Source: Lama guanicoe
Taxonomy: Eukaryota
Assembly (NCBI GenBank): GCA_013239625.1
Contig: MU053873.1
Location: 3,300,524-3,364,523, forward strand
Direction: 5' to 3'
DNA: 64,000 nucleotides
In this document: piece after piece, positions 23,354-62,900 of the stretch
How positions within the stretch are numbered: the first letter of the stretch is position 1
Layout: the number at the start of each line of letters is the position of its first letter
Translations under genes and position numbers: made by a program
Notes under the pieces: generated by a model
The model's input: the letters and a program-made list of their open reading frames with translations, nothing else
Database searches by the model: none
Told to the model about the DNA's origin: nothing

Positions 23354-23620
23354 TTTTTTTTCCAATTTTACTGAGTTACAATTGACAAATAAAAACTGTC
23401 TATTTTTAGGTGTATAGTGTGAGGATTTGATATATGTATACATTGTGAAGTGACTACCGCAATGAAATTAATTAATACATCCATCACCTCACATAGTTAC
23501 CATTTCTTGGTGTGTGGTGAGAACACTTAGGATCTACTCTCCTAGGAAATTTCAAGCATACAACAAGCACAGCATTATTAACAATAGTCACCATGCTGTT
23601 TGTTAGATCAGTTACAAGAT
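23354..23620 (-). mobile_element. L1MA-type 3' end
   Basis: ttttactgagttacaattgacaaataaaaactg...catcacctcacatagttacc...agtcaccatgctgt. Confidence 0.8.
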
Positions 23621-24514: not shown

Positions 24515-25697
24515 AGCCTTACTGAGGTGTGACTGACAAACAGAAACCACTCACCTTTAACACGCACGTGATAAGCATCATTACTAAAGACAATGGACAT
24601 CTATCACCCGGGAAGTACCCTTTTACAATCCTTTCTCCCCTCCTCCTGTCCCCACCCAAGCCCTAGGTAACCGCTGACCTGTTCACTGTCACGGCAGATT
24701 CGTTTGTGTTTTCTAGAGTTTCACGTACATGGGATCATAGGGTTGCACTCTTTCATTTGAGATTTTTCACTCAGCAGAATTATTTTGGGAACCATTCTGT
24801 TCTTGGATATATCAGTAGCACATTTTTATGACTGAGTCGGGTACTATCTTTATGAATATCCCACAACAAATTCATCTATTCACCTGTTAATAGACATTCG
24901 GGTAGTTTCCAAGTTTTGGCTATTACAAATAAAACTGCTAACAAACTTTCATGTGAAAATTTTTGCATGGATGTACACTTCCATTCTCTTGCGTAAATAT
25001 CTAGGAGCAGGCTAGTGTGTCATATGGGAGGTGAATGTTTAACTTTTTAAGAGACGGTTTTCCAAAATGATATATTATTTTACATGCCCACTAGCCACTG
25101 CATGAGAGTTCGTTACCCCAAATTCTCACCAGCAGTTGGCAGGACCCATCTTTTCATGCATTCTAGCAATTGTGCAGTGGTATTTCACTGTGATTTTACT
25201 TTGAACTTCTTTAATGACTAATTATATGCTGACATATTTTCACGTGCTCATCTGCCTTCTGTGTGTTCTCCTTGGTGAAGTCTATGTTGCAATCTTTTGC
25301 CCATCTTTTTTGTCAGGTTGTTTCATTTACGAGTTTTGAGAATCATTTATATATCCTGGATTCAAAAACTTCATCAGGTATGTGATTTGCAAGTATCTTC
25401 TCCCAGTTAATAGTGACATTCAAAGAGCAGATGTTCTTAATCTCAATAATGGGCAATTCATCAATTTCTTCTCTTACGGACACTGTTTTGGTGTCCTATC
25501 TATGAAGTCTTCACCCAATCCAAAGTTATAGAAATTTTTCTCCTGTTTTCTTCTAGAAGCTTTATGATTTTTAGTTTCACATTTATGTCTAGATCCACTT
25601 TTTTGTTAATTTTGTATATGGTGTGAGTTCATGGATTGAAATTCTTTTTTTTTCCTCCTTTGGATACCTAATTATTCTAGCACTGTTTGTTTCCTAG
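24515..25697 (-). mobile_element. Old L1 3' region, degraded ORF2 end and 3' UTR (partly repeated at 27507-27814)
   Basis: T-rich tract with ttttggctattacaaataaaactgct, tgtgcagtggtatttcactgtg and tgatttgcaagtatcttctcccag. Confidence 0.85.
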
Positions 25698-26612
25698 ACA
25701 TGGATATTTGGGAAGAGGTTTTGGAGCAGAAATGATCCACCCTCCTCCATCTAGTGAGCTACTCATCCTTCAAAAGCCAGGTCAAATGTCCCATTGGCTA
25801 GGAAGCCTTCCCCAGCCGAGGCCAGGTAGCTCTTTCAACTGTCCTCTGGTGCCATCTCTGGCATATTCTTATCTCACATGATTGCATTAATTCCCAAGTC
25901 TTTTCCTGATAGAGTGAAAATTCAGATGTGGTCCTTAATTCCAGCACTTAGCACAGACCTGGCACAGGTGGTGATGGTAGGAGTGGAGGTGGGGGAGTGA
26001 CTTAGAAAACAATTGTTAAAATACAAAAAAAAAAAGAATAAACAAGTGAACAATCCTCTTTTTCTCTTTTTTAAACAACTGAGTGGCACCTCTCCAGGCC
26101 CTACTCACAGGCCGTATCTTCCAGGAAGCCACCTGGCTGCACCTACTTACATTAATCATCAATAATACTTACTAAAAGTATCTCACTGATTTGACTTAAT
26201 CCAAGCCCAGCATCTAAGTACTTTCTGCACATCATTTCGTTTCATTCTCACAAATCCCTGGGGCAGATACAACTACTATGATTATTTTACCGAAGAGGAT
26301 ACACATGCTCAGAGACGTTGGGTTCCATGCCTGATGTCACATATCCAGTGTCAGAGCTCTGGTTTGAACCCAGAGAGCCTGTCACAGAGGCCTCGCTCTC
26401 ATCTCTACACATACCACCTCCTGGTTCCCTCTATTTGTACAACTCTCATGTCCCTGACAAGCCCAGGTCCCCGATATTACCAGTCTTTGCCAACGATGCA
26501 CCCTGGAGACAAAAGAGCTAAGTCACACAGAAGACCCCTTCCTCACCCTCTGATCCTCGCCATGGGGACACAGACACCCATGGGGACACACCCAGAAGGA
26601 CCTCCTCCTTAC

Positions 26613-26676
26613 CTTAGGCCACACACCCATGCCGAAGGAGCTGCTGTCTGCCATCTGGTGCAGGTACAGATCTGTC
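26613..26676 (-). CDS. MYO18B: Second identical copy of MYO18B coding exon 10, inside the gap-flanking duplication
   Basis: Identical to 28730-28793 at offset 2117. Only one copy can be used without a frameshift. Confidence 0.5.
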
Positions 26677-27256
26677 CTGGAAGCAGAGAAGGGACGAGAA
26701 GTTATTAGGGAGGGCCCACATACACCAGTGGCTGTCACACAATGCTTCAAGCAGCCCCAGTGGCTACCCCAGGCCCTGGCCAATATTCCTCACTCATTGC
26801 CCTCACTCATCCTTTCCTAAGTGCCAGGAAACCCTGCAAGTCATGGACTATAGCCACAAAGGCAGGTTCTAACTCCAGGTCCTCTAAGGACCAGCTGTGT
26901 GAACTTGGGACTGTCAACTTGAACAAGCCCCTTCTGTATGCCAAGATCTAAGATTACTCATGACAGCCCTACCCAATAGGTGTAAGTATTAGGCCCATTT
27001 TACAAATGACAAAATAAAGGTACAGGGTTAGCATCTTGCCCACACACTTAGCAAACACAGCGCTGGGAGTCAGGCTGAGTTCTTCTGGCACCCAGAGTCC
27101 AGAATCCCATGCTGTCCTGCCACCTGCCCCTTCTTCTCCTGGCCTCTGTCTTCACGCCATTAAGTGGCATGATGTTTAAGGTCCCTTAAACCAAAAGACC
27201 CTTAAAAGAGGTGCCTGCAGGTAGGTAGCCTTACCCTGGAGGCCTCAAAAAAGCAA

Positions 27257-27506
27257 NNNNNNNNNNNNNNNNNNNNNNNNNNNNNNNNNNNNNNNNNNNN
27301 NNNNNNNNNNNNNNNNNNNNNNNNNNNNNNNNNNNNNNNNNNNNNNNNNNNNNNNNNNNNNNNNNNNNNNNNNNNNNNNNNNNNNNNNNNNNNNNNNNNN
27401 NNNNNNNNNNNNNNNNNNNNNNNNNNNNNNNNNNNNNNNNNNNNNNNNNNNNNNNNNNNNNNNNNNNNNNNNNNNNNNNNNNNNNNNNNNNNNNNNNNNN
27501 NNNNNN
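27257..27506. other. Assembly gap (250 N)
   Basis: Run of n characters. Confidence 1.
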
Positions 27507-28729
27507 CAAGTATCTTCTCCCAGTTAATAGTGACATTCAAAGAGCAGACGTTCTTAATCTCAATAATGGGCAATTCATCAATTTCTTCTCTTACGGACAC
27601 TGTTTTGGTGTCCTATCTATGAAGTCTTCACCCAATCCAAAGTTATAGAAATTTTTCTCCTGTTTTCTTCTAGAAGCTTTATGATTTTTAGTTTCACATT
27701 TATGTCTAGATCCACTTTTTTGTTAATTTTGTATATGGTGTGAGTTCATGGATTGAAATTCTTTTTTTTTTCTCCTTTGGATACCTAATTATTCTAGCAC
27801 TGTTTGTTTCCTAGACATGTATATTTGGGAAGAGGTTTTGGAGCAGAAATGATCCACCCTCCTCTATCTAGTGAGCTACTCATCCTTCAAAAGCCAGGTC
27901 AAATGTCCCTTTGGCTAGGAAGCCTTCCCCAGCCGAGGCCAGGTAGCTCTTTCAACTGTCCTCTGGTGCCATCTCTGGCATATTCTTATCTCACATGATT
28001 GCATTAATTCCCAAGTCTTTTCCTGATAGAGTGAAAATTCAGATGTGGTCCTTAATTCCAGCACTTAGCACAGACCTGGCACAGGTGGTGATGGTAGGAG
28101 TGGAGGTGGGGGAGTGACTTAGAAAACAATTGTTAAAATACAAAAAAAAAAAGAATAAACAAGTGAACAATCCTCTTTTTCTCTTTTTTAAACAACTGAG
28201 TGGCACCTCTCCAGGCCCTACTCACAGGCCGTATCTTCCAGGAAGCCACCTGGCTGCACCTACTTACATTAATCATCAATAATACTTACTAAAAGTATCT
28301 CACTGATTTGACTTAATCCAAGCCCAGCATCTAAGTACTTTCTGCACATCATTTCGTTTCATTCTCACAAATCCCTGGGGCAGATACAACTACTATGATT
28401 ATTTTACCGAAGAGGATACACATGCTCAGAGACGTTGGGTTCCATGCCTGATGTCACATATCCAGTGTCAGAGCTCTGGTTTGAACCCAGAGAGCCTGTC
28501 ACAGAGGCCTCGCTCTCATCTCTACACATACCACCTCCTGGTTCCCTCTATTTGTACAACTCTCATGTCCCTGACAAGCCCAGGTCCCCGATATTACCAG
28601 TCTTTGCCAACGATGCACCCTGGAGACAAAAGAGCTAAGTCACACAGAAGACCCCTTCCTCACCCTCTGATCCTCGCCATGGGGACACAGACACCCATGG
28701 GGACACACCCAGAAGGACCTCCTCCTTAC

Positions 28730-28793
28730 CTTAGGCCACACACCCATGCCGAAGGAGCTGCTGTCTGCCATCTGGTGCAGGTACAGATCTGTC
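28730..28793 (-). CDS. MYO18B: MYO18B coding exon 10 (RTDLYLHQMADSSSFGMGVWPK)
   Basis: 64 nt, ttccag acceptor, AAG|gtaagg donor. Phase 2/0 fits both neighbours. Confidence 0.93.
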
Positions 28794-31700
28794 CTGGAAG
28801 CAGAGAAGGGACGAGAAGTTATTAGGGAGGGCCCACATACACCAGTGGCTGTCACACAATGCTTCAAGCAGCCCCAGTGGCTACCCCAGGCCCTGGCCAA
28901 TATTCCTCACTCATTGCCCTCACTCATCCTTTCCTAAGTGCCAGGAAACCCTGCAAGTCATGGACTATAGCCACAAAGGCAGGTTCTAACTCCAGGTCCT
29001 CTAAGGACCAGCTGTGTGAACTTGGGACTGTCAACTTGAACAAGCCCCTTCTGTATGCCAAGATCTAAGATTACTCATGACAGCCCTACCCAATAGGTGT
29101 AAGTATTAGGCCCATTTTACAAATGACAAAATAAAGGTACAGGGTTAGCATCTTGCCCACACACTTAGCAAACACAGAGCTGGGAGTCAGGCTGAGTTCT
29201 TCTGGCACCCAGAGTCCAGAATCCCATGCTGTCCTGCCACCTGCCCCTTCTTCTCCTGGCCTCTGTCTTCACGCCATTAAGTGGCATGATGTTTAAGGTC
29301 CCTTAAACCAAAAGACCCTTAAAAGAGGTGCCTGCAGGTAGGTAGCCTTACCCTGGAGGCCTCAAAAAAGCAAGCAAAAGGGGAGGTGGAGGCAAGTCCT
29401 CCTCCAGGCACCCTCTACTCACAAGAGCCCAGCCTATGACCCCCACACCCACCATGGGGCTCACATTGGTTCATAGGAAGTAGTGCTCTCTCACCAGTTT
29501 CCAGTCAGTTTCTCCAGTTCTGGGGCCTTTAGTGCCATCTCCCCAGGTTCTTTGTCTCACAACCTGCAAGGTCCCTTGTCAGAGAGACTGTGAATCCAAT
29601 CCCAACTCTGCCAGCTAGCAGATAAGGTGATTCTCTTCTCTGGATGTCCCTCTAACGCATCTATAAGTGGGCATCCTCCCCCTTGCCTCACGGGATTAAC
29701 GGAGATCTTACATATAAACTCCTACTGCCGGCTTGGCATAGGGTAGGTGTTCTATATTTGTTTTCCTTGCACTTGACCTGGTCTCAACTCCATTAGCTGG
29801 AAATTCAACTTGACAAATAATCAAGGAGCATCTACCCAGTGCCAAGTCTTGTGTTAAGTCCTGGGAAGAAGGAAAGGAATAAGGCAGGGCCCTTGATTCA
29901 AAGATCTCACAGTCTAGTGAGGAAGAAAGACCCAGTATGGCAGGTGCTGAACCAAAGCACATACCAGGCACCAAAATGGTATCAAGGAGAAACAGAGAGC
30001 AGGGATCAGGCAGCACTCCTGTAAAGAAGGGTTTTGGAGCAGGGTTTTGAAGGATGAATAAGAGTTTGCCACATGAATGCATAGGAGAAAGGAAGGACAT
30101 TTGTGGAAGTGGGAATCAGTTTTCTCCTTTGGAAGCTTCACCATGGATTAGACAACAGCCTGGCAGAAGCAGAGGCAGAGAAAGGGAGATGGCCTGGGAG
30201 GTCACCAGGGAGCCCCCAGAGACACCATAACACCCCATGAGGTCTGGGTTGTTCTAAGAACTTTTTTCCACTCTCCCAGGTCCCTGCAACTCATCTGGGG
30301 CAACCCCATGCCATGGTCAGTTTTGTCATAGCTCCTAAGGACATCACAATCACCTGGGTCAGGCCCACTGACACGGAGCCCTCCCCATACAGATCTGATC
30401 CTGGCATGAGGCCTGGCATCCTCTGCTGGTAGCAGTCCAGGAGGAGCTTTCAACTCCCCTCTCTCCACCAGGCGATGGCTCTAGGCCCAGAACAGACTCC
30501 CACCCAGGGGTATAGAACTGATCACCTACACATGGGCTCACAAGGGAGAGGGGCATGGCCTCCAGTCTTCTGAGAGATGAGGAAACGGGTGAATCCCCTC
30601 ACTGGAGGCCCGAAGCTGGAAAGCAGGATTCAAACTTCTACATGCAGAGTCTACACTCTCCCATGTTACCCCTCAACTATGCACCACACACCACGTCTAC
30701 CACCTCGACATGTAACTTGGTTTAAATGCCCACAGGGCTGGCACAAGTAGGTACCCATTCTAAGGAAGGGAAAACTGAGGTTCAGAGATGACCACATCAG
30801 GCAAAGCCTGTATCTAAACAGATATCCCTCTGACTCCAAAACCAATCCTTTCTAGCACACACCAGATCAGGACGTGATGGGCTTGCGGGGCAGGTCTAAA
30901 CCTCCAGAAGAACAACAACAAACGTGCAAAGCATTTGCTATGCTCTGGCCCCATTCTAAGCACTGTACACTCCTCACTCGGTAACCATCACAACACTCTG
31001 AGGTAGACACACTCATTTCACAGATGGGAAATTAGGCTCAGAGAGGTGAAGTCACCAGCCTGGGGTCACACAGTCGGCAAGTGAAGAGGCCAGCTGTGAA
31101 TCCCTGCAGTTTGGCCCCAAAGTCAGTGGTCCTAGCCACAATGCTACACCAGTCTACTCCAAGTTCTTCTATATTCCCAAAGGCTTCTCAGAAGCTTCCT
31201 TACTTTCAGTTACCTTGCTCTGAAAACCAGAAGTTTCCTCTAATCTTCCCTCTATCTGAAGGGTACAGTTGTCCTCCCAGCCTTACCCAGGAGGCTCAGG
31301 ACAGGTTGAGACTGTCCTTCAGATGGGGGAGGAAGGCAGACAAATAATGGGGGGTGCAAAGAGACAAACTGCAAATTATCCCTCCTTCACCTGGGAAAAG
31401 GCCTAGTTTTTTCCTTGCCCTGGGGCTTCACTAGAACCTTGCCCGGTCACTCAAGAGATAAGAAAACCAAGGCTCAGACAGGGAGGGAGCCACACAATGC
31501 CCTAGAGTCAGGGAAGGGCAGAGATGACTCCCTGGGCTACCTCCCCCAGGAAGCACTCCAAAATGAATCTCCTGGCTACTCTGCGGGCTGTTTCACCCTG
31601 AGCTCCATTGCCAAGGTAACCCACTCAAGCAAACCCTCCTGAGCACCCAAGGCTCTCACAGAGTTCAGGAACTTCTGGAAGATGTGGGGTCTTCTGTTCC

Positions 31701-42430: not shown

Positions 42431-43657
42431 CTGGTCCGAGACTCTGCTCTGGCCGCCTCCACTCCCCTCCTGCAGGGCTGGCCCCTCTCGGCTCTTCATC
42501 TCGGGCCTTTCTGCACAGCTCTCCAGAGCAGGCTTTCTAGGTCCTTCCATCTCCAGCTCTGGGCCCCCATCACCGGTGCTAGTGCAGGGCTCCTCTGCTT
42601 CCTGCCCTCTGCTTTCAGGCTGGTCCTCCTTCCCGGCTGCTGCCGGCGTCTCCCCACGTGCATCCATCTCCTTTGGGGCTTGAGAGCCCTTCTCTGTCTT
42701 CCTTCCAGCTTTCCCTGCCTCCTCAGACCTGCTCTGAGGCTGCCCTACCTTTTCCATCTCACCCTGGGGTTGACCTGCTCTCTCCATTGCTCCGGGAGCT
42801 TCTCCCACCTGTCCTTGTGCTGTGCCCACCTTCTCTGCCTTGGCCTGAAGCTCCTCGGTCTTGTTTGCCTGACTTAGGAGCACACCTTCTTTGTCCTTCT
42901 TACTCTGGGGACCGTCCCACCTGCTTCTTCTGCCCAGGGAAACTCCCCATCTTCTCACCTGGGTTCTGGCCCCAGCCCACTTCCTTTCACCGGCTGCCTC
43001 CTGGGAGAGATTCCCCTTTGCCACCTTGCTTGAGGGGTCCCCTCCCCGTTTCTCCACTGTCCCTGGTTGCCCCCCCTCCCCTGGCCCCTCTTTGCCCTGG
43101 AGTTCACCCCCTTTCACCCCTTTGGTCTGTGGGGCCCCGCCCCCCTTCCTCACTGTGCCTTGATCCTTCTCGCCTTCTGTCGGTAACACAGTTCCCAGGT
43201 CCCCAAGACCCCCAGCCTGGGTCCTCTCAGCCTTCGGAGCTGCATCCTTGGTGCTGGCCTGGGGGCCACAAGGAGTCTCTGAGGTCTCCCCTTTCTTTTC
43301 AACCCCAGGGTCTGTGGCTGGGGGTGGGGTCTTGCAAGTGGGTGCCCCACGGGGCTGGGTCCTCTGCTCCGGCCTGGCTGAGTCCGAGTCCAGCTTGGCC
43401 ACCATCAGCAACACATCGCCCCTCCTCACCCCCCTCTTGAAGGGCAGGGGTTTTCTGGCTGGTGTCCCGCTGGGGCCCGACTCCTGGGGCCTCTCGCCAT
43501 TGATGCTGGTCATCAGCATGGGGTCCACGGTGCCGGCCCCCTCGCTCTTCCTGCCCAGAATGTCTGCGCTCTGGGAAGAGCTTGAGATTTGTTGGCTTCC
43601 AGATTTGGTGCTGCTGTCGGACTTGCTGTTGGTCTGGTTGAAGGGAATTTCTGGGGT
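42431..43657 (-). CDS. MYO18B: MYO18B coding exon 3, large N-terminal extension exon (TPEIPFNQ...PFKRGVRRGDVLLMVAKLD...SRVSDQ)
   Basis: 1227 nt open frame overlapping ORF 42230..43528. ttttctcctag acceptor, CAG|gtgagg donor. Contains the conserved KRGVRRGDVLLMVAKLD block. Confidence 0.94.
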
Positions 43658-50095: not shown

Positions 50096-50752
50096 GAGGT
50101 GATGGACACACGAGACTGAACCACAGAGACACAGTGGGGAGAGAAGAGAGATAGGTGAGCTCATGGGCACCGCCCGGCTCCCATTCCCCACCATCATCAT
50201 GTACCAAGAACCCACAGCCAGGCACAACTCACTGTCACTTACATCTGGGAGGAACGCAGTCAGCACAGGGCTGCTGGCCATGGAGCAGACAGTGCACTGA
50301 AAGCCTTTGCCCTCAACCCTACACTTCAACTTTCTCATGACATATACAATCAGAAGAGCACATACTCATTAAATGCACAGCTCAGTGCACTCACATAAAG
50401 AACTTAAATGTAACCAGTACCCTGACCAAATTAAAACTATTGTTTTAAATTTTTTAAATAAACACTATGATTTTAAAAATATTTTAAATCCAGTTAAAAT
50501 TTAGTGTATTACTGATTAAAAGAATCATCTTAATTTTAATCAAAATTATAAAAATAAAAAATAACTTTAAAATTATTAAAAATAAATTTTAATTTAATTT
50601 AAAATATTGTATTTATATAAAACAAAATCAAATCCAATCAGGCAAATCTAATTTACAGTGATAGAGGCTGGAAGAGCTGTTAGCTTTTGCTTGGGAAGAA
50701 CCATGGGGGAACTTTCTAGGGCAATGGGAATGTCCTATATCTTGATGTAAGT

Positions 50753-51189: not shown

Positions 51190-51959
51190 TAGTGCTGGTT
51201 ATGCTAGTACATCCCCTGTAAAAACTCATTCAGCTGTACAATTAAGATCGAAAATTTTAGTGTATTAAATCCTATCTCAATTTGAAAAATAAACAGAATA
51301 TTACCACCCCCTTGAGCATCCCTTGTGTCCCCTTCTAGTAACCACCCCCTGAAGGGCAGCCGCTAACCTGGTTTCTAAAATCACAGAACAGGGTGTTTCT
51401 CTTGTGAGGGAGCAGGCGGCCCCACAGTTTCACTACGAAAATGAGGAACGCGTAGGAAACCTCAGCTATGAATTGACCCAGAGCTCTGGGGAAAAGCTTA
51501 AGCTTGTTCAGCATCATTCTGAAAGCCCTAAACACTCATAACATTTGACCTCTTCTGGAAAACAAGTTTGAGGAAGTGATCCTCAACCAGAAAACGTCAT
51601 CACTGTGTTGCTTGTAGTGCTAAAAAAACAAAAAACAAAAAAACCAAAAAAACCCGAAGTGTCCAATAACTACAGAATGTCAAATAAATCAGAGTACACC
51701 TGACTTGAATATTAAAATGCCACTGAAAAGGATGTTTAGGAAACGTTTTAAAACAGCTTTATTCATCCCATTGTCAGAACTTGTAGAAGGCCAGTGTCTG
51801 TACAAACTGCTGAAGAGTTTCACGTGTCCCTTTGTTCCCATACTATAAATAGAAACGTCAGGGAAAAATGTAAATTAGCAGGCTCAAAGTGGAAAGAACC
51901 TGTCTGCCTCATATCCAGGTGTCATTAATAACAGTAAATTATTAACGCAAAAATAAAAA

Positions 51960-52550
51960 ACTGTCTTTACTGAAGTATAATTTCTATGCCAGCTGTAAGA
52001 ATCACCCGTTATAAGCATACACTTCGATGCTTTTTGAAAAATTAACCATTTTTAAAATAAATTTACAGAGTACTGCAACCATCACCAGAATTTCATCGCC
52101 CCCAAAAGACCCTTCACGTCCATTTGCAGCCTCAGCCCCAGGCAACCACTAATTTACTATCTAGCCTCTACCGGTTGCCTTTTCCAGACATGTGATATAA
52201 ACAGAATCCTAGAGAATGCAGTCTTTTACATCCTTTCACCTTGCATAATGTTTTGGAGCTGTGTCTGCTTTATCGTGTAAGTCAGTGTTCCCTCGTACAG
52301 ATAAACCACATCATCTTTATCCATTCACCCACTGATGAGCATTTGGGTTGTTTCCACCTGGAGGCCGTGATGAATACCGCGGCTCTGAATAGTCACAGAA
52401 GTCTTGGGGTGCCCAGGTGTTTCCACTTCTCTTTGGGAGCTTCCTAGCAGGGGGCACTGCTGGGTACTACGCTAATTTTACGTTTGACTCTTTAAGAAAT
52501 GGCCCAACTGTTTACCAAAGTGGCTGCGCCATTTCCCATCCCACCTGCGG
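51960..52550 (-). mobile_element. L1MB/ME-type 3' fragment
   Basis: ctttactgaagtataa...caggcaaccactaatttac...ccattcacccactgatgagcatttgggttgtttccacc. Confidence 0.8.
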
Positions 52551-52711
52551 TGTCTCGGGCTCGTTTGGGAAGCATCTGCAGTCACAGTGGAAGGTGTTTG
52601 TGTTGGCTTGTGAAGAGAATAAGATGGAGGAAAGCACCGCACACATACAAGAACTATCCAAAATGGGCAAATAACAAAGCACTCCACACAGAAAACAAAA
52701 AGCAGAAAGAA

Positions 52712-53073
52712 ACAGCACAGGTTCTGCGTCTGCGATTTCAACCAAGCATGGACGGGAACAATGCGGGGGGGAAAAATTCCAGAAAGTTCCAAAAAGCAAA
52801 ACTTGAATTTGCTGTGCCCTGGCAACTGCTGACACTGCATTTACGTTTACACTGTATTTACATAGCATTTGCATTGTGTTTATAACTGCTGACACGGGCA
52901 TTTACATTGCATCAGGTACAAGTAATTTAGAGACGATTTAAAGTATACAAAGGAGGCTGTGCATACGTTATATGCAAATACTACATTTTATACAAGGGAC
53001 TTGCGCATCCACGAGTGTCTGTATCTGTGGGGGTTCCTGGAACGAATCCCCTGCGAATACAGAGGGATGACTA
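52712..53073 (-). mobile_element. MER2/MER2B-like TcMar-Tigger DNA transposon
   Basis: ttccaaaaagcaaaacttgaatttgc...ttatatgcaaatactac...ggttcctggaacgaatcccctgcgaatacagagggatgact. Confidence 0.8.
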
Positions 53074-53149
53074 TGCAGCAAAATCTTAGGGAACCAGGCC
53101 AGGAGGGGAGGAACGAGTCTCTTTCCCCTTTCATTTTTTTCACTTCTAG

Positions 53150-53790
53150 CTCCGGCAGCGTCCCTCACTGACTCCTCAGCCCCGTCCTGGAAGATACCCC
53201 AACCCCACCCGCGACTGTTAGTTTACCTCGTTCTAGAGTCTTCGCCCCCTTGGCCTGTTAGTAGCCACTCTCAGTAACTTACCCATAAGAAGAGGCTTGG
53301 GCAGCGTTCGAGCTAATCCCGCCTCGCGCACCAACACCTGAGCATTCGGAAAGCTGGTGAGACCGGCCTCCCGGGACAGCGCTGTGTGGAAGCCCACTCT
53401 CACCTCACCAGAACCCACCGTGGCCCTCACTCTCCAGCTCCGCGGCGAACAGCGTCATCTCGCGAAAGCCCACCGTGGCCCTCAATTTAGCTCCGCGTGG
53501 GATGATGGGAAACTGACTCCCAACATCTCGCGAGAGTCCACTGTGGACTTCGCTTTCCAGCTTCGCGTGGGATGATGGCAAGCCGACTCTGATTATATCG
53601 CGAGAGCCCACTGTGGGCCTCAACTCCATATGGGATAATGGGAAACATCTCGCGAGACCCTATCATGGGTATCGCGTTCGAACTTCGCGTGGGATGATGA
53701 AAGCCGGCTGGTCATCTCGCGAAAGCTCGCCGGGGACCTGCTGTGGATCTTGCTTTCAAACTCGGCATGGGATGATGTCACATAATAGTT
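53150..53790 (-). promoter_or_regulatory. CpG-rich candidate promoter and non-coding first exon of MYO18B, with a tandem BANP/ZNF143-like motif array
   Basis: Locally high CpG density. Five TMTCGCGARA motifs. Minus-strand donors TGG|gtaagt (exon end 53283) and GAG|gtaaac (exon end 53227) point toward the acceptor at 50115. Confidence 0.65.
53410..53782. repeat. Degenerate tandem repeat, ~52-70 bp unit, about 5.5 copies
   Basis: Recurring catctcgcgaRag-cccacYgtgg...cgcgtgggatgatgg. Motif starts at 53458, 53526, 53596, 53648 and 53715. Confidence 0.85.
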
Positions 53791-53896
53791 TGAAATCAGC
53801 CACGGCAGTGTTTACTCCGCATAAATTGGCAGATACCACAAGTCAAGTGTTTTGTTTTGTTCCAGGAGAACCGTTAAACACTGACCGGCACATTGC
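53783..53896. mobile_element. MER63/Arthur-like hAT fragment abutting the motif array
   Basis: aatagtttgaaatcagccacgg...aaattggcagatac...ccaggagaaccgttaaacactgaccggcaca. Confidence 0.5.
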
Positions 53897-56351
53897 TCCT
53901 ACAAGGCCTGGCGAGAATGAAATCTCAGGATCCAAAGAAGGGATGTTTTGTCTCTGATGAGGGCATGTGCCCATGGAGACCCTAAGAACATGAGTTCAAG
54001 TGCGAACAGCGAAGTAAAGAGCTACAGGGTGTGGGCTCTCCAGCTTGTGAAGGCACGTTAGCGGCAAATAAAGCTGGAGGATACGCAGGAGCCCAGATCT
54101 CTGGGGGGAGGAGCTGGGGGAGAGGTGGGGTCAAAAGACGCCTCTCCACTCGTTCCCTTAGGAGACACTGTAGTGGCCTCAAGTGACTCACAACCAGAAT
54201 CCACTCTGCTACACGCCTGGGCAGCAGAGCCGAGCTTATGAATAGGCCTGACGTGAGGTGGTTGTCCTGGCCACTGCCCTGCCCCTCAACACTTCCCATC
54301 CAGCCCAGCCAGGTCAGTGGCTGCTTCCCAAGAATCACTCTCACCTTCAAGGCTCCAGGGGGAATCCTGAGCTGTCCTCAGCCTGGCTGTGGGCAGGCCC
54401 AGACGGCCATGGTATATGGGGGCAATGAGAGAGAGCTCCATTTCCGGCCTTCACTCCACGTGTCCTTCCCTTCAAAGGCATCAGGCCAGCCCCACTGACC
54501 CAGGGCCAGGAGCCAGTCCTACCGGGGTGGCTTTGTCAAGCCTTAATTTAAGCATGTGTTCTTATCACTGCATTCCTGTCCAGATCTGAAACTCACACCT
54601 GCCTCATCAGCTGCTGTTGTAAGCCCATGAGAAGGCCCCAAATGTTCAGAATTCATGGGATAAAGTGTCAAGTCTTTCCTCAAGGGTGAAGGAGGCTGGT
54701 GAAATGAAAGGTAACCCCAAATCCAAGGATGGCTTGAAACAGTTTTCTATGTAGACAGGCTAGGTCTGCGTGGCCCTGTGGGGCCCTCAAGGCATCCCCT
54801 CTTACCCCTCAAGGTTCAGCCCTGACCCAGCAGCTAACCCTCATTCACCTGTCTCAAAGAAAAAAAAACCCAGGTCTTCATAGTGGCTTCTGAGGCCCCC
54901 GTGATCACCTGTCCCAACCTCTCCCCCTTGCTCCTTTGCTGCAGCAACACTGACCTGACTGCACCCTTCCACACGGTTCCCACCTCAGGGCCTTTGCACA
55001 TTCTGTTCCCTGTGCTTCACATGCTTTTCTTTCTGCATGGCTCACATCTTCACCTCTTTCAAGCCTTAGCTCAGAGTCATCTTCTCAACAATCCTGCCTT
55101 CACCATCTTATTTAAATTGCTGCACAGCCCCATTCCACCTCGTCCCACCCCTATCCCAGGACTGCCCATTGTCTTTCCTTGCTCTTCCCCCCATAGCACT
55201 TAATCACTGCCTATCATCCCACAATACATCATGCTGTATATTTTTGGTTTAGTTTCTGACTCCCCACACAGAACATGGCCCCTGTGAGGTTCAGAATTTC
55301 CATCTGTTCTGTTCACTTAAGTAGCCCCAGAGCCTAGATCAGTGCCTGGCACATACTTGGCTCTCAAGACATATTTGTTGAGTGAATGAATGAGCGAATG
55401 GATGAATGATTAGGAGTGTCTGGGAAGGACAAAGCAGGCCATTGTCGGCAAGTCTATAGCTGGGATTTCTGACGTCCCCCTGCACTGTCTGCATCTGCAC
55501 ATAGGGGGCAGCATGTTATCATGACCCAAGTTCATGTCCTGCTACCACTATTCTCTTGTGGGAGCCCAGGAAGTTCTCTGAGACTCAGTTTTCTCAGCTG
55601 TAAAGTGGGAAGAGGACACCCACAGACCCATGTGCTTAATCACTGATAACTGTTTTCAATCATCTTTTCATTTTTGTTCATGGCTCCCTAAACCCTTGTA
55701 GTTTCCTAAGTGTAAAGGGTCATCAGGGTGTGTTTTGTTGTGTTAATGAGGTGACTTTTGGAAGGCCAAATATATATTTTTCTTTATAAATCACAATGTT
55801 GCACCCAGCTCAATTAAAATCTCCAAATGCTTTGTGCATCAGCTGGCTTTGACAAGCCAGCACCTCCCCTCCCCCACCTTACCCCCTTCCTCCATCCCTA
55901 AATCCTGCCACAAGTGTTTCTTGGAGAATCGTTAGAAAAATCTTGGCTCCTCCAGCACATTGGCTCTCCCCTTTCTATATCTGCAGTTTCCCCACTGACC
56001 CAGGTGGGCCACATGCCCCTTGCCAGCCACCTTACAGTCTGATGAGATGCCAGATCTCATAGATGGGCCTCGTGGCCGACTGCAAGGATGACCAATATTT
56101 CTCAAATGCCAGCATCAACTCATCTGTATTTGGGAGCTGCTTGGAGTGTTGTATTGAGAAGCATCCTAAGCTACGGCTGAACTAGCAAGAACGTGTGTGG
56201 TGATCAACTAGCAATGTCTGCCGTGGGCACAGGAATGGTTGGGGTAGTGTGGTGCCTGCACCAATGTGGCTAGTGGCTACCATATTGGACAGCACAAATA
56301 CAGAACATTTCTATTGTTGAAGAAAGTTCTGTTGGACAGAACCAAACTAGA

Positions 56352-57559: not shown

Positions 57560-57994
57560 TTGACATCTGCCTTGATGGTTATGAGATACCTCCATCAGCT
57601 CTCATCCCAACAACCTTGTTTGTGTAATAAAGCTCACTTTTGTTGAACTAAAGCTGAGATTTAATTCTTTCCTTTGAGGTTTGGAAGATGACGATGAAGT
57701 TTTGGGGCTGGGGGTAATGGGGAAAATTCGGTTAGTATTCCTAAAATGAGGAGCCCCAGGCTGCTCCCTGAATGCCAAACTTGAAGGCAGGGTCTGTTCT
57801 AACCGAATGCCATCACTACAAAGCTGTGTGTCCTTGAGCAAGTTGCTATCCCTCTCTGTGCCCTAGTGGCCCCCATCTGTGAACAGGTAGGGCTGGATCT
57901 GATGGCACCCAGGAGCCTTCTGCTTGTCTCAAATGGACTTTCTCCATTTTTCAAATAATGCAATTTCATACAGTTTAAATATTAGGGTTATCAT

Positions 57995-58490
57995 GTAAAG
58001 ACATGGAGGAAACTTAAAATGCCTGTTACTAAGGGAAAGGCCCAGTCAGTGAAGACTACATACTGTATGACTCCAACTGTATAACATTCTGGAAAAGGCA
58101 AAACTATGCAGAAAGTAAAAAGATCAGTGGTTGCCAGAGGTCAGGGGAAAGGAGGGATGGACTAGGCAGAGCATAGAGGATTTTTAGGCCAGTGAAACCA
58201 TTCTGTGTGATACCCTAATAATGGAGACCTGTCATCGTGCATTTGTGCAAACCCATCGAATGAACACCACCAAGAGTGAACCGGCATATCGACTATGGCC
58301 TTGGAGTGGTAAGGACATGTCAATATAAGTCCATCGGTTGTCACAAACGTCCCACTTTGGTGGTGGATGTTATCATGGGGAGGCTGTGAATGTGGGGGGC
58401 AGGGGGTGTGTGGGAAATCTCTGTACCTTCCCTTCAAGTTTGCTTTGAATCTAAAACTGATGTAAAAAGTAAAAACGATTAAATAAAAAA
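57995..58490 (+). mobile_element. L1MC1-like 3' end
   Basis: acatggaggaaacttaaaatgc...acattctggaaaaggcaaaactatg...tgggaaatctctgtaccttcc followed by an A-rich tail. Confidence 0.8.
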
Positions 58491-59126: not shown

Positions 59127-59216
59127 TTTTTTTTTTTTAAATAGAGGTACTGGGGATGGAACCCAGGACCTTCTGCATGCTAAGCACATGCTCTACCACT
59201 GAGCTACACCCACCCC
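59127..59216 (-). mobile_element. tRNA-Ala-derived SINE (Vic-1-like, camelid)
   Basis: The minus strand reads GGGGTGGGTGTAGCTCAGTGGTAGAGCATGTGCTTAGCATGCAGAAGGTCCTGGGTTCCATCCCCAGTACCTC, then a poly(A) tail. A and B boxes are present. Confidence 0.85.
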
Positions 59217-59842: not shown

Positions 59843-59921
59843 CCCCCTCCCCCCTCCCCCCCCCCCCCCCCCCCCCCCGCCCCCCCCCACCCCTCCCCCC
59901 ACGCCACCCCTCCTCCACCCC
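59843..59921. repeat. Poly-C / C-rich low-complexity tract (G-rich on the minus strand)
   Basis: A run of more than 20 C flanked by shorter C runs. Confidence 0.95.
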
Positions 59922-59944
59922 AAACCCATCCTTATTTGGAATAA

Positions 59945-62900
59945 ACGGAATAAAAAACTACTATCAAGGTTTATACTCAACAGCATTGGGAACATGAAAA
60001 GGGGAAGAGTTTGGCCTCCTGACTGTAAACTGACACCCAGTTAAGCAGAAATCACCGGTAGTTGAGGGAAAAATCTGAGCCCCACCGTCTGCCGGCTGAG
60101 ATTCCAAAGTGAAGGTTATCTCGTGACTCTAAATATATATAATTTTCATAAGCAGCAAACAGCTGGGTCCTGATCAGGGTGGTCCTTAAAAGTATCCGCT
60201 CGCCCCAGCCTTTCGTCCTAAAATCTGCCCATGAAACACTCTTGTTTTCTCTACGAGCGATGCAGGCACGCGGCAGAGGGAAGAGGCCCCGGAGGCCGGC
60301 CACATCAGAAAGGCCTAAAATAGACGGACAGACCAGAGGCCTGCCACCGCAGCCCCCAAAGCACATTCCCGAAAATTGTGCCTGTCGACTCGCAAGTGCC
60401 CATCGCAAAACCCAGCCCGACGGTACCTTCAACCCACAGGGCCACAGGTCTCAGGATCCACTGTCACCTGAAAGGTCTCCCCAGGTCTCAGTGCAGAGAC
60501 CCCACCAAGCCGAAAGAGCAGGCACAGAGGAGAAATGTCAGCGCTCCCCTCCCCACACTGTCACACACATCCCCTTCCCTCACTGCTCCTCCCTGTCCTC
60601 CCGCACCCTCCCTCTGCGCCAATGTGATAGCAGCTGAGTCGACAAGTCATTTCTAAAATTAGCTGGTGAGCTCCAGGTCTGGGCAGGAGACGGCAGCCTG
60701 GGGTGGCCATCGGAGCGTGGCAGTCAGAGGGCATGGACATATTTGGTGGCGCAGAAAAGGGGAGGGGACAGCTCCCGACGCAAGCACATTCTCACCCATC
60801 ATCCCTGTCCCGGGCGGGCAGCACAGCCATGCTCCTGCCTCTGCTCCATGCAGATAACCAGTGGCCACTGGAGTTGGACGAGGAGAGCCCGGCTCCACGT
60901 TCCAGCTGGGACTCTGGAAGGAAATTACTGGACCCGGTGCTGGCGTCTCCCGGTAAACAATCAATGCATGTAAATAAGTGTAAGGAGGATGCAGCCACTA
61001 CCACACGCCTGGACACCAACCTGAGGCCTTTAATGAACTCATTTTCCATTCCCGACAATCCTAGGAGGTAGGGTTTCCCCACTCCCATTTCACAGGTGGG
61101 GAAACGGAGGCACAGAAAAATGAACCAACTCGCAGGGGAGAGCCAGGATTTAGAACCTAGGCAGTCCTGGCCCCAGATGACACAGACTTAAACATGGCAC
61201 AAAACAGGATGCTCGAAAGAGTGCCCTGTCCACTGCCTGTGTTACTGACTCTGGTTCTGGAACTCTCTAATCAACAGAAAGTGATAAGAGGCCAGATGAG
61301 AAGTTCAGGCAAGGCTTTATTGGGACTCATGCTGCAGCGTGAGGGCGAGAGAACAAGAAACAGCTGCCCTTGCTTGTACACACAGATAATCTTAAGCACT
61401 GAGCCTAACTAAAGTGGTATTTTTTTTATTGAAGTATAGTTGATTTACAATATTATATCAGTTTCAAGTTTACAATAGTAATTCAGACTTACAGATTACA
61501 CCCCGCTGAAACTTCCAATGCAAAATGGAAGCTTTTTCAGTGGCGACCACAAAGGGCAACTGTATTTGTTGACCGTACTGAGCTAAGCCTCCAGAGTACC
61601 GTCGGTATGATCTTACTTTTCATTTGTTAGAGGGACCCAACTGTACACAAACAGACTATTCATAATTCTCTTCCTCTCTTTTCCCAGTCCTCACCAGTCA
61701 GTAGGCCATTTCACGACAGAGAAGTGAAATAATCGTTATCTGTCACATAGAAACAATGAGGCAGAAGTTAGGTTTAAAATAGGACCAGGCTGGATGTCCC
61801 CAATGCAGGCGCTTCCCACGATCACTAATAGACGCGTGAAAGGGAGGAAATTTTGAAAAATCCCCGTAGAAAACTATGACTGACAGTCAGGTGGAGACGT
61901 GTTTAACCAGCTAGCAAATCAACACTGTATGCCTACAAGGGAAACTGAAGAACTGGGCATCTTACCCGCAGACCAAAGTTAAAGAGTAAGAATACGAATG
62001 CAAAAACCAGTCATGTCCATACGTTAGGCCCAAAGAGGTTGCCCCGTGACCTTGCTGGGAGTAGGGTCCCCAGGATACTGCCCTTCCTTCTGGGTTCCAA
62101 GGAGGGACTGGATTTCTGCAGCTCTCAGGCATGGTCCTTGGTTATGTGGTGCATCAGACCCAGGGCTCCACTGCACGGCTGCCCTCTGCCTATGGAACTG
62201 ACTACGTTCCCCATAGCTGGGGCTCCCGTCAATTACTCCATTAAGAGGTTTTCAAGTCTGCAAACACAACTACATTCCAGGGAAACCGGATGGCTATGTG
62301 CACCAATTGTGACTTCCTTCTTTCCTGAACCGGCAAGGGACAGGAGGTGCTTCCAGCTCAAGGACGGAGGTACCTGCCCTACCCTCAACCTCTGGACCCA
62401 CGAGCAGACAGTCCCGCCCAAGAAGTCGTGGCTCTGGGGCCACCACCTCCTTGGATTCTGGTTTAAAGTGATGTGCACCACAAGGTCTCTCATGTCCTCC
62501 TGGGAGCAGGGATGGAGAGTGAGAGGTCTTAAGTCCAGGGAGGGACCCCAGGGTCACCCGAGAATCACACGGGGGAGCTTGGCATCACTTCCAGAAAAAT
62601 TGGAGATGAGTTGGACCTCCCGGCTTTCCCAGACTCTTTCCTGGCACCATGTCTGACACAAGCAGGTAGTCTCCAAAACCCTGACATTGAAGTTGGCTGT
62701 GCTCAAACAGTCCATCAAATCAGCAGAAACGCTTATTCGGTGGTTCCCATCCTTTTATTTTTTCATTTTGTAATAAAATCAGTCTCCGCATGAATTCTCC
62801 CCAAAGTCAGGATTCTTAAAAATGAGTCATTTCCTGATGACCTAAATGCTTGATAAAGAAATGCAGTTTCCTTAATTAATTTAATTTAATGGGGGGGGGG

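Follow-up and report, generated by a model that had tools for sequence, protein, structure and literature searches.

A tandem array at 53401–53790, placed by its surroundings in the first intron of the Lama guanicoe MYO18B gene, resembles a multi-copy CGCG/BANP CpG-island promoter in both motif content and base composition. It consists of five full units of 52–78 bp and a decayed sixth unit, and it forms the sole CpG island of the 64-kb stretch of DNA that was analysed (64,000 nucleotides, hereafter the window). Judging from these sequence features, we consider the chances about even that the array is a lineage-restricted intragenic CpG-island/BANP promoter in intron 1 of camelid MYO18B, feeding an alternative first exon. 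The lineage restriction is suggested by a single paper's statement about human, which in the part available describes the MYO18B gene and its promoter as having no CpG island (PMC12160609).

A motif scan of the 64,000 bases found TMTCGCGANR only at 53458, 53526, 53596, 53648 and 53715, with the letters, positions and spacings (68, 70, 52 and 67 bp) that the initial annotation had given. Measured against the BANP motif TCTCGCGAGA, two of the five sites are perfect and three carry one flank change; the motif TCTCGCGAGA or an active variant of it, as expected of a CGCG/BANP CpG-island promoter, is present. The TAT variant is as active as the consensus in reporters, while the AAA variant is not named in the available text of that study (PMC6192621), which also bears out the annotated methylation sensitivity of TMTCGCGANR. 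A period-70 array was detected by TRF at 53456–53623, and a repeat search returned six copies, including a degenerate unit at 53401.

All units are oriented along the plus strand. Unit 0 (53401–53455) is degenerate and has lost its BANP site, partly via a CG-to-CA change. Unit 1 (53456–53523) carries the site at 53458, unit 2 (53524–53593) the perfect palindromic site at 53526, and unit 3 (53594–53645), which has two deletions, the TAT-variant site at 53596. The perfect site at 53648 belongs to unit 4 (53646–53712) and the last, at 53715, to unit 5 (53713–53790), which has an 11-bp internal insertion. As annotated, each of the five full units also contains a second element, at 53494, 53564, 53627, 53686 and 53764. 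Pairwise identity among the full units is 0.68–0.83. None of 5000 dinucleotide shuffles of 53200–53800 reached five sites (mean 0.023, maximum 2), in a test that treats sites as independent whereas tandem copies share an origin. No second copy of the array was found within the 64-kb window.

A known counterpart is the human DENR promoter, a TATA-less CpG island with several copies of the same 10-bp motif and its TAT variant (PMC6192621). There, three copies lie 21 and 11 nt apart in a conserved housekeeping promoter, and reporter activity rose 7- and 17-fold with the second and third copies (PMC6192621). The putative promoter described here differs in having five copies in a 52–78-bp tandem repeat, in lying within a muscle-gene intron and in being apparently missing from human. 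The initial remark that such sites usually occur in few copies is right as a generalization, but several tandem copies have been described, as the three at DENR illustrate (PMC6192621).

The CpG island extends from 53190 to 53830 (641 bp, GC 0.56, 46 CpG). Its observed/expected CpG ratio of 0.91 is the peak of the window, against a median of 0.23 over 391 windows, and agrees with the composition of CGCG/BANP promoters. In the five full units, CpGs within BANP sites were intact in 10 of 10 cases, compared with 8 of 14 at the remaining CpG positions (p = 0.022). When ancestral CpG columns were defined with unit 0, 9 of 19 non-BANP CpGs were intact (p = 0.005); with unit 0 also counted, the comparison was 10 of 12 BANP CpGs versus 12 of 23 others (p = 0.07). 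Nearly all losses of non-BANP CpGs in the six units (10 of 11) are transition-type changes to TG, CA or TA, the mark of methyl-cytosine deamination. This suggests that the units were methylated in the germline at some time, with the BANP cores of five units surviving, and we infer that these survived by selection or through protection by a bound factor. Simple neutral star models gave p between 0.00008 and 0.04 for at least five of six units remaining intact; p-values of this kind are optimistic because the units are related by descent. GC skew of the region was uninformative.

Old repeats left of the island also have raised CpG ratios (0.71 and 0.52, versus 0.31 and 0.16). Those adjoining the island, at 51970–53074, comprise a remnant that we take to be L1-like (0.52) and one on the minus strand at 52725–53074, presumably of a MER2/Tigger-like DNA transposon, which shows high CpG retention (observed/expected 0.71); a similar piece at 57990–58480, likewise presumed L1-like, has 0.31. 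These ratios were considered as support for a germline-unmethylated domain and set aside, since the counts are small and 60–64 kb also shows 0.44–0.54.

Conservation within the array was scored on an alignment that was not anchored on the motifs, using the 65 columns represented in at least four of the five units. The 10 BANP columns had a pairwise identity of 0.90, the second element (14 columns) one of 0.84 and the remaining 41 columns one of 0.59, so the motifs are better kept than the spacers, as initially noted. A permutation test with the BANP columns as a fixed window gave p = 0.009, and with both blocks, the second of which was picked post hoc, p = 0.00016; the best of any 10-column window gave p = 0.21. 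The fixed-window test is fair because the BANP motif was defined independently of this locus. The proposed origin by old tandem duplication, as a minisatellite, with BANP sites outlasting the spacers, is supported.

The gene is MYO18B, on the minus strand. The translation of a large exon at 43657–42440 has seven database relatives, all named myosin XVIIIb or unnamed, and tblastn mapped successive MYO18B exons to the minus strand, running leftwards from 48361. Over 76 residues, the large-exon product shares 97% identity with a Camelus ferus MYO18B model. The Camelus model aligns only to the first 76 residues of this exon and therefore skips most of it, probably through a gene-prediction or assembly fault. 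Elsewhere in the window, two 1867-bp copies (25390–27256 and 27507–29373, 99.7% identical) flank its sole N gap (27257–27506) and duplicate a MYO18B exon; overlap in the assembly is the likeliest cause, ahead of a genuine duplication of the exon.

The region at 60427–60700 on the minus strand corresponds to human exon 1 and its muscle promoter. It includes a 15-mer CTCF site at 60683–60697 with one mismatch to the published human site, an E-box at 60631 and, at 60653, a MEF2-consensus site. Only two places in the window match the CTCF 15-mer with at most two mismatches (0.12 expected), and three match the MEF2 consensus (0.36 expected). The other two MEF2-consensus sites lie inside MYO18B at 51843–51852, 1.5 kb from the array, and at 23400–23409; that at 51843 may mark an intronic muscle enhancer. 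The human MYO18B promoter, which is not a CpG island, has its CTCF site 145 bp before the start, and a MYOD site lies 40 bp away from that CTCF site (PMC12160609). This arrangement, CTCF 145 bp upstream with MYOD about 40 bp away, is not found in the array and maps instead to 60631–60697. The CTCF, E-box and MEF2-like sites there therefore place the muscle start near 60540, with candidate exon 1 donors after 60468 or 60427, and put the array in intron 1, with the muscle promoter about 7 kb upstream and the first coding exon 3.3–3.7 kb downstream. The initial view of the array as a promoter standing in front of the myosin gene is thus replaced by an intronic position. The human muscle promoter shares with the array the gene and a methylation-sensitive control, and its CTCF site and E-box are present in the window; it differs in being a low-CpG, MYOD/CTCF promoter with its counterpart at 60.5–60.7 kb, 7 kb from the array (PMC12160609). 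About 500 bp into intron 1, an 80-bp C-rich tract of low complexity (59843–59922; G-rich on the sense strand) could be a G-quadruplex or assembly noise.

Reported CGCG elements indicate where transcription from the array would begin. A single element drives bidirectional, methylation-sensitive transcription with starts 20–70 nt away (PMC6192621), and BANP motifs inserted into a chromosomal reporter relocate start sites (10.64898/2026.05.04.722487). By analogy with DENR-type promoters, start sites would be expected 20–70 nt outside the motif cluster, on both sides, which would place minus-strand starts at about 53390–53440. This distance rule, together with a strong minus-strand splice donor after 53283, defines a candidate alternative non-coding first exon at 53283–53440 on the minus strand. 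The donor is a perfect GGTAAGT; the minus strand has six of these in 64 kb and no other from 50.2 to 61.5 kb, but 71 of its 3825 GT sites equal this donor in their fit to the consensus. Weaker minus-strand donors follow 53409, 53404 and 53227. By eye, the candidate leader contains two upstream ORFs of 10 and 14 codons (ATG at 53345 and 53286), and an acceptor with a polypyrimidine tract and CAG lies at 50115–50150 on the minus strand, before the first coding exon (exon 2) and about 3.2 kb from the candidate donor. Beyond the candidate exon, the first A(A/T)TAAA on the minus strand occurs only at 51763. Within 500 bp, no plus-strand donor scores better than 6 of 9 matches, and an AATAAA on that strand at 54067–54072, some 340 bp to the right of the last BANP site, is a candidate early antisense end. 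Such an asymmetry of donors and polyadenylation signals is typical of promoters directed to the sense strand whose antisense transcripts stay short.

These observations are consistent with the following sequence of events. An ancestral unit of about 70 bp with one CGCG/BANP site would have been duplicated five to six times, after which the units diverged by 17–32%. BANP forms oligomers and binds CGCG selectively when it is unmethylated, being repelled by methylation (PMC11472053); on unmethylated DNA it would bind the five sites and open the chromatin. The leftward, sense transcript would be spliced from the donor at 53283 to the first coding exon, giving a new 5′ leader with an unchanged protein, and the rightward transcript would end early at 54067. 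Methylation would switch the promoter off, so germ cells or early embryos would be the likeliest place of its activity. SYCP1, SYCP2, TDRD6, TDRD9 and MORC1 are germline genes. They are included in the human CGCG gene list, from which MYO18B is absent in the available text (PMC6192621), and germ cells show lower-level expression of human MYO18B (PMC12160609). Germ cells may be favoured because of this expression and the many germline genes on the list. The decay of the spacer CpGs records past germline methylation, which is awkward for a germline promoter that is constantly unmethylated.

A word search of sequencing runs gave 21 rows: nine RNA or possibly-RNA runs containing 0.14–0.21 of the 29 words, five of them labelled reproductive-system, six runs of unknown kind containing all words, and six added by label; these figures are no measure of expression or tissue. 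The paired-motif patterns had no matches in viral contigs or in metagenome contigs, and the plasmid collection held no match to the array pattern. A 21-letter pattern had one metagenome match, in an apparently prokaryotic coding sequence that shows no similarity outside the pattern; this match was rejected as chance, as were 10 matches in prokaryote genomes, where about 14 were expected by chance and none extended past the motif. No mammalian orthologue of the array was found in the viral, metagenome, plasmid and prokaryote collections searched. Camelid satellites, with monomers of 1.8–8.5 kb in the available part of PMC13751797, are unlike the array unit. The literature searched, which leaves most subscription papers outside, contains no description of the array or of an intronic camelid MYO18B promoter.

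The second element had been described as closely fitting the Staf/ZNF143 consensus, each copy pairing with a BANP site. Against the consensus used in the initial annotation, the fit is good for one copy, in unit 1 (one mismatch), and loose for a second, in unit 2 (two mismatches). It fails for unit 3 (three mismatches, a level of at most three that 26 other places in the window reach) and for units 4 and 5 (more than three). Compared with the SBS1 probe (PMC3627581), the five units have 4, 5, 6, 7 and 9 mismatches of 18, unit 1 being the best SBS1 match of the window and the sole site at 4 of 18. Its element at 53494, on the minus strand, is the only good Staf/SBS-like site of the array. Mutation of CCCA at positions 3–6 abolishes ZNF143/Staf binding (PMC1904299), and this core is intact in two of the five units, 1 and 3, rather than in every unit; the SBS core is broken in unit 2, and in unit 3 both CpGs of the element have decayed. 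The ACTACAN extension (SBS2) occurs in none of the five units, and conservation over the 18-column SBS span is not significant (p = 0.15). The best-kept stretch of the element is a 10–11-nt core, TGGGATGATG, which is present in almost all units and is offset from the SBS core; it has eight window matches with at most one mismatch, against 1.83 expected window-wide, and four of the eight lie inside the array. ZNF143/Staf promoters with two SBS sites (BUB1B) or three (BIRC5) (PMC1904299, PMC3627581) are comparable in that unit 1 resembles the 18-bp SBS1. They differ from the array, which keeps CCCA in two units, lacks ACTACA and has matches that fade to background along its length. The only Rfam match in the window is tRNA-like (59142–59213, minus strand), which leaves the Staf-like site with no snRNA gene to serve. 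That match has a poly(A)-like tail and is probably a tRNA-derived camelid SINE.

A single ZNF143 site is plausible on these comparisons, while a five-fold two-factor cassette is not supported. That BANP and ZNF143 are both openers of CpG islands (10.64898/2026.05.04.722487) and that unit 1 is the window's best SBS1 match would suit the full initial reading, a BANP plus ZNF143 cassette acting as the promoter of the myosin gene. We regard this as very improbable given the incomplete SBS cores, the missing extension and the offset of the conserved core, and because the conserved muscle promoter sits elsewhere, at 60.5–60.7 kb. Even less credible is a neutral, decaying minisatellite without function that contains the motif by chance. 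One founding motif accounts for all five copies, unit 0 lost its copy, and neither the post-hoc window test (p = 0.21) nor the six-unit CpG test (p = 0.07) argues strongly otherwise; but the motif was defined independently of the locus, its columns and CpGs are the best kept, and the island coincides with the CpG peak of the window.

A transposon origin is unlikely, yet far less so than neutrality. The array would then be the remnant of a transposon promoter, either a solo LTR U3 or an L1 5′ UTR, whose internal repeat already held BANP sites and which may now be silent or only leaky; the conservation of the motifs would then go back to the time when the element was active. Its flanks consist of other old repeats (identities presumed, as above), and the uneven conservation among units was possibly inherited from a transposon consensus. 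Mobile-element promoters with the same motifs and methylation sensitivity are known: active THE1B/C LTRs carry BANP/ZBTB33 motifs (PMC10474299), solo LTRs at promoters contain ZBTB33 motifs (10.64898/2026.02.17.706328), and MLT1J has ZNF143 sites (PMC3627581). Absence from human, going by the no-CpG-island statement (PMC12160609), would also fit. In contrast to THE1B/C and MLT1J, for which the available text describes no 70-bp BANP array, the array showed no LTR ends or target duplication. No LTR signature rises above chance: TG...CA pairs with a duplication of at least 4 bp number 15 versus about 8 expected, those with a 5-bp duplication 2 versus 2.0 expected, 6-bp duplications are absent, and the longest flanking direct repeat is 11 bp. 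None of the 12 ORFs scanned (of 32 listed) matched Pfam, the array is single-copy in the 64-kb window, and CpG loss would be expected of an old, silenced element, against the observed/expected ratio of 0.91. Such an origin could also be combined, as exaptation, with an intragenic promoter. Distinctly unlikely is an orphan CpG island that is bound and open without feeding MYO18B, serving as an enhancer, as a source of short or antisense non-coding RNA, or as a copied promoter fragment brought in by a camelid segmental duplication. CGCG elements do fire both ways (PMC6192621), and antisense transcripts with a testis preference come from other parts of human MYO18B (PMC12160609). Against this, the strong donor is sense-directed with an acceptor 3.2 kb away, and the plus strand meets an early AATAAA with no good donor in reach.

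A more specific form of the intragenic promoter reading is possible though rather unlikely: a camelid- or artiodactyl-specific, methylation-switched promoter born inside a muscle gene through tandem amplification of one BANP site and providing a germ-cell first exon of MYO18B, with TGGGATGATG marking a partner factor. Were the germline first exon and the partner factor real, promoter birth and the multivalency of BANP could be studied on the array as a natural copy-number series.

Multi-copy CGCG promoters, intragenic CpG islands and alternative first exons are all known, and the array, unusual in its tandem architecture, would be a good example rather than a new principle. Its intact motif CpGs beside decayed spacer CpGs make it a small test of CpG protection, on an evolutionary time scale, by a bound factor or by selection. 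If active, it would be a compact natural case of promoter birth via tandem duplication of a single activator site, by which a sarcomeric myosin gene would have gained a second, non-muscle entry point in one lineage.
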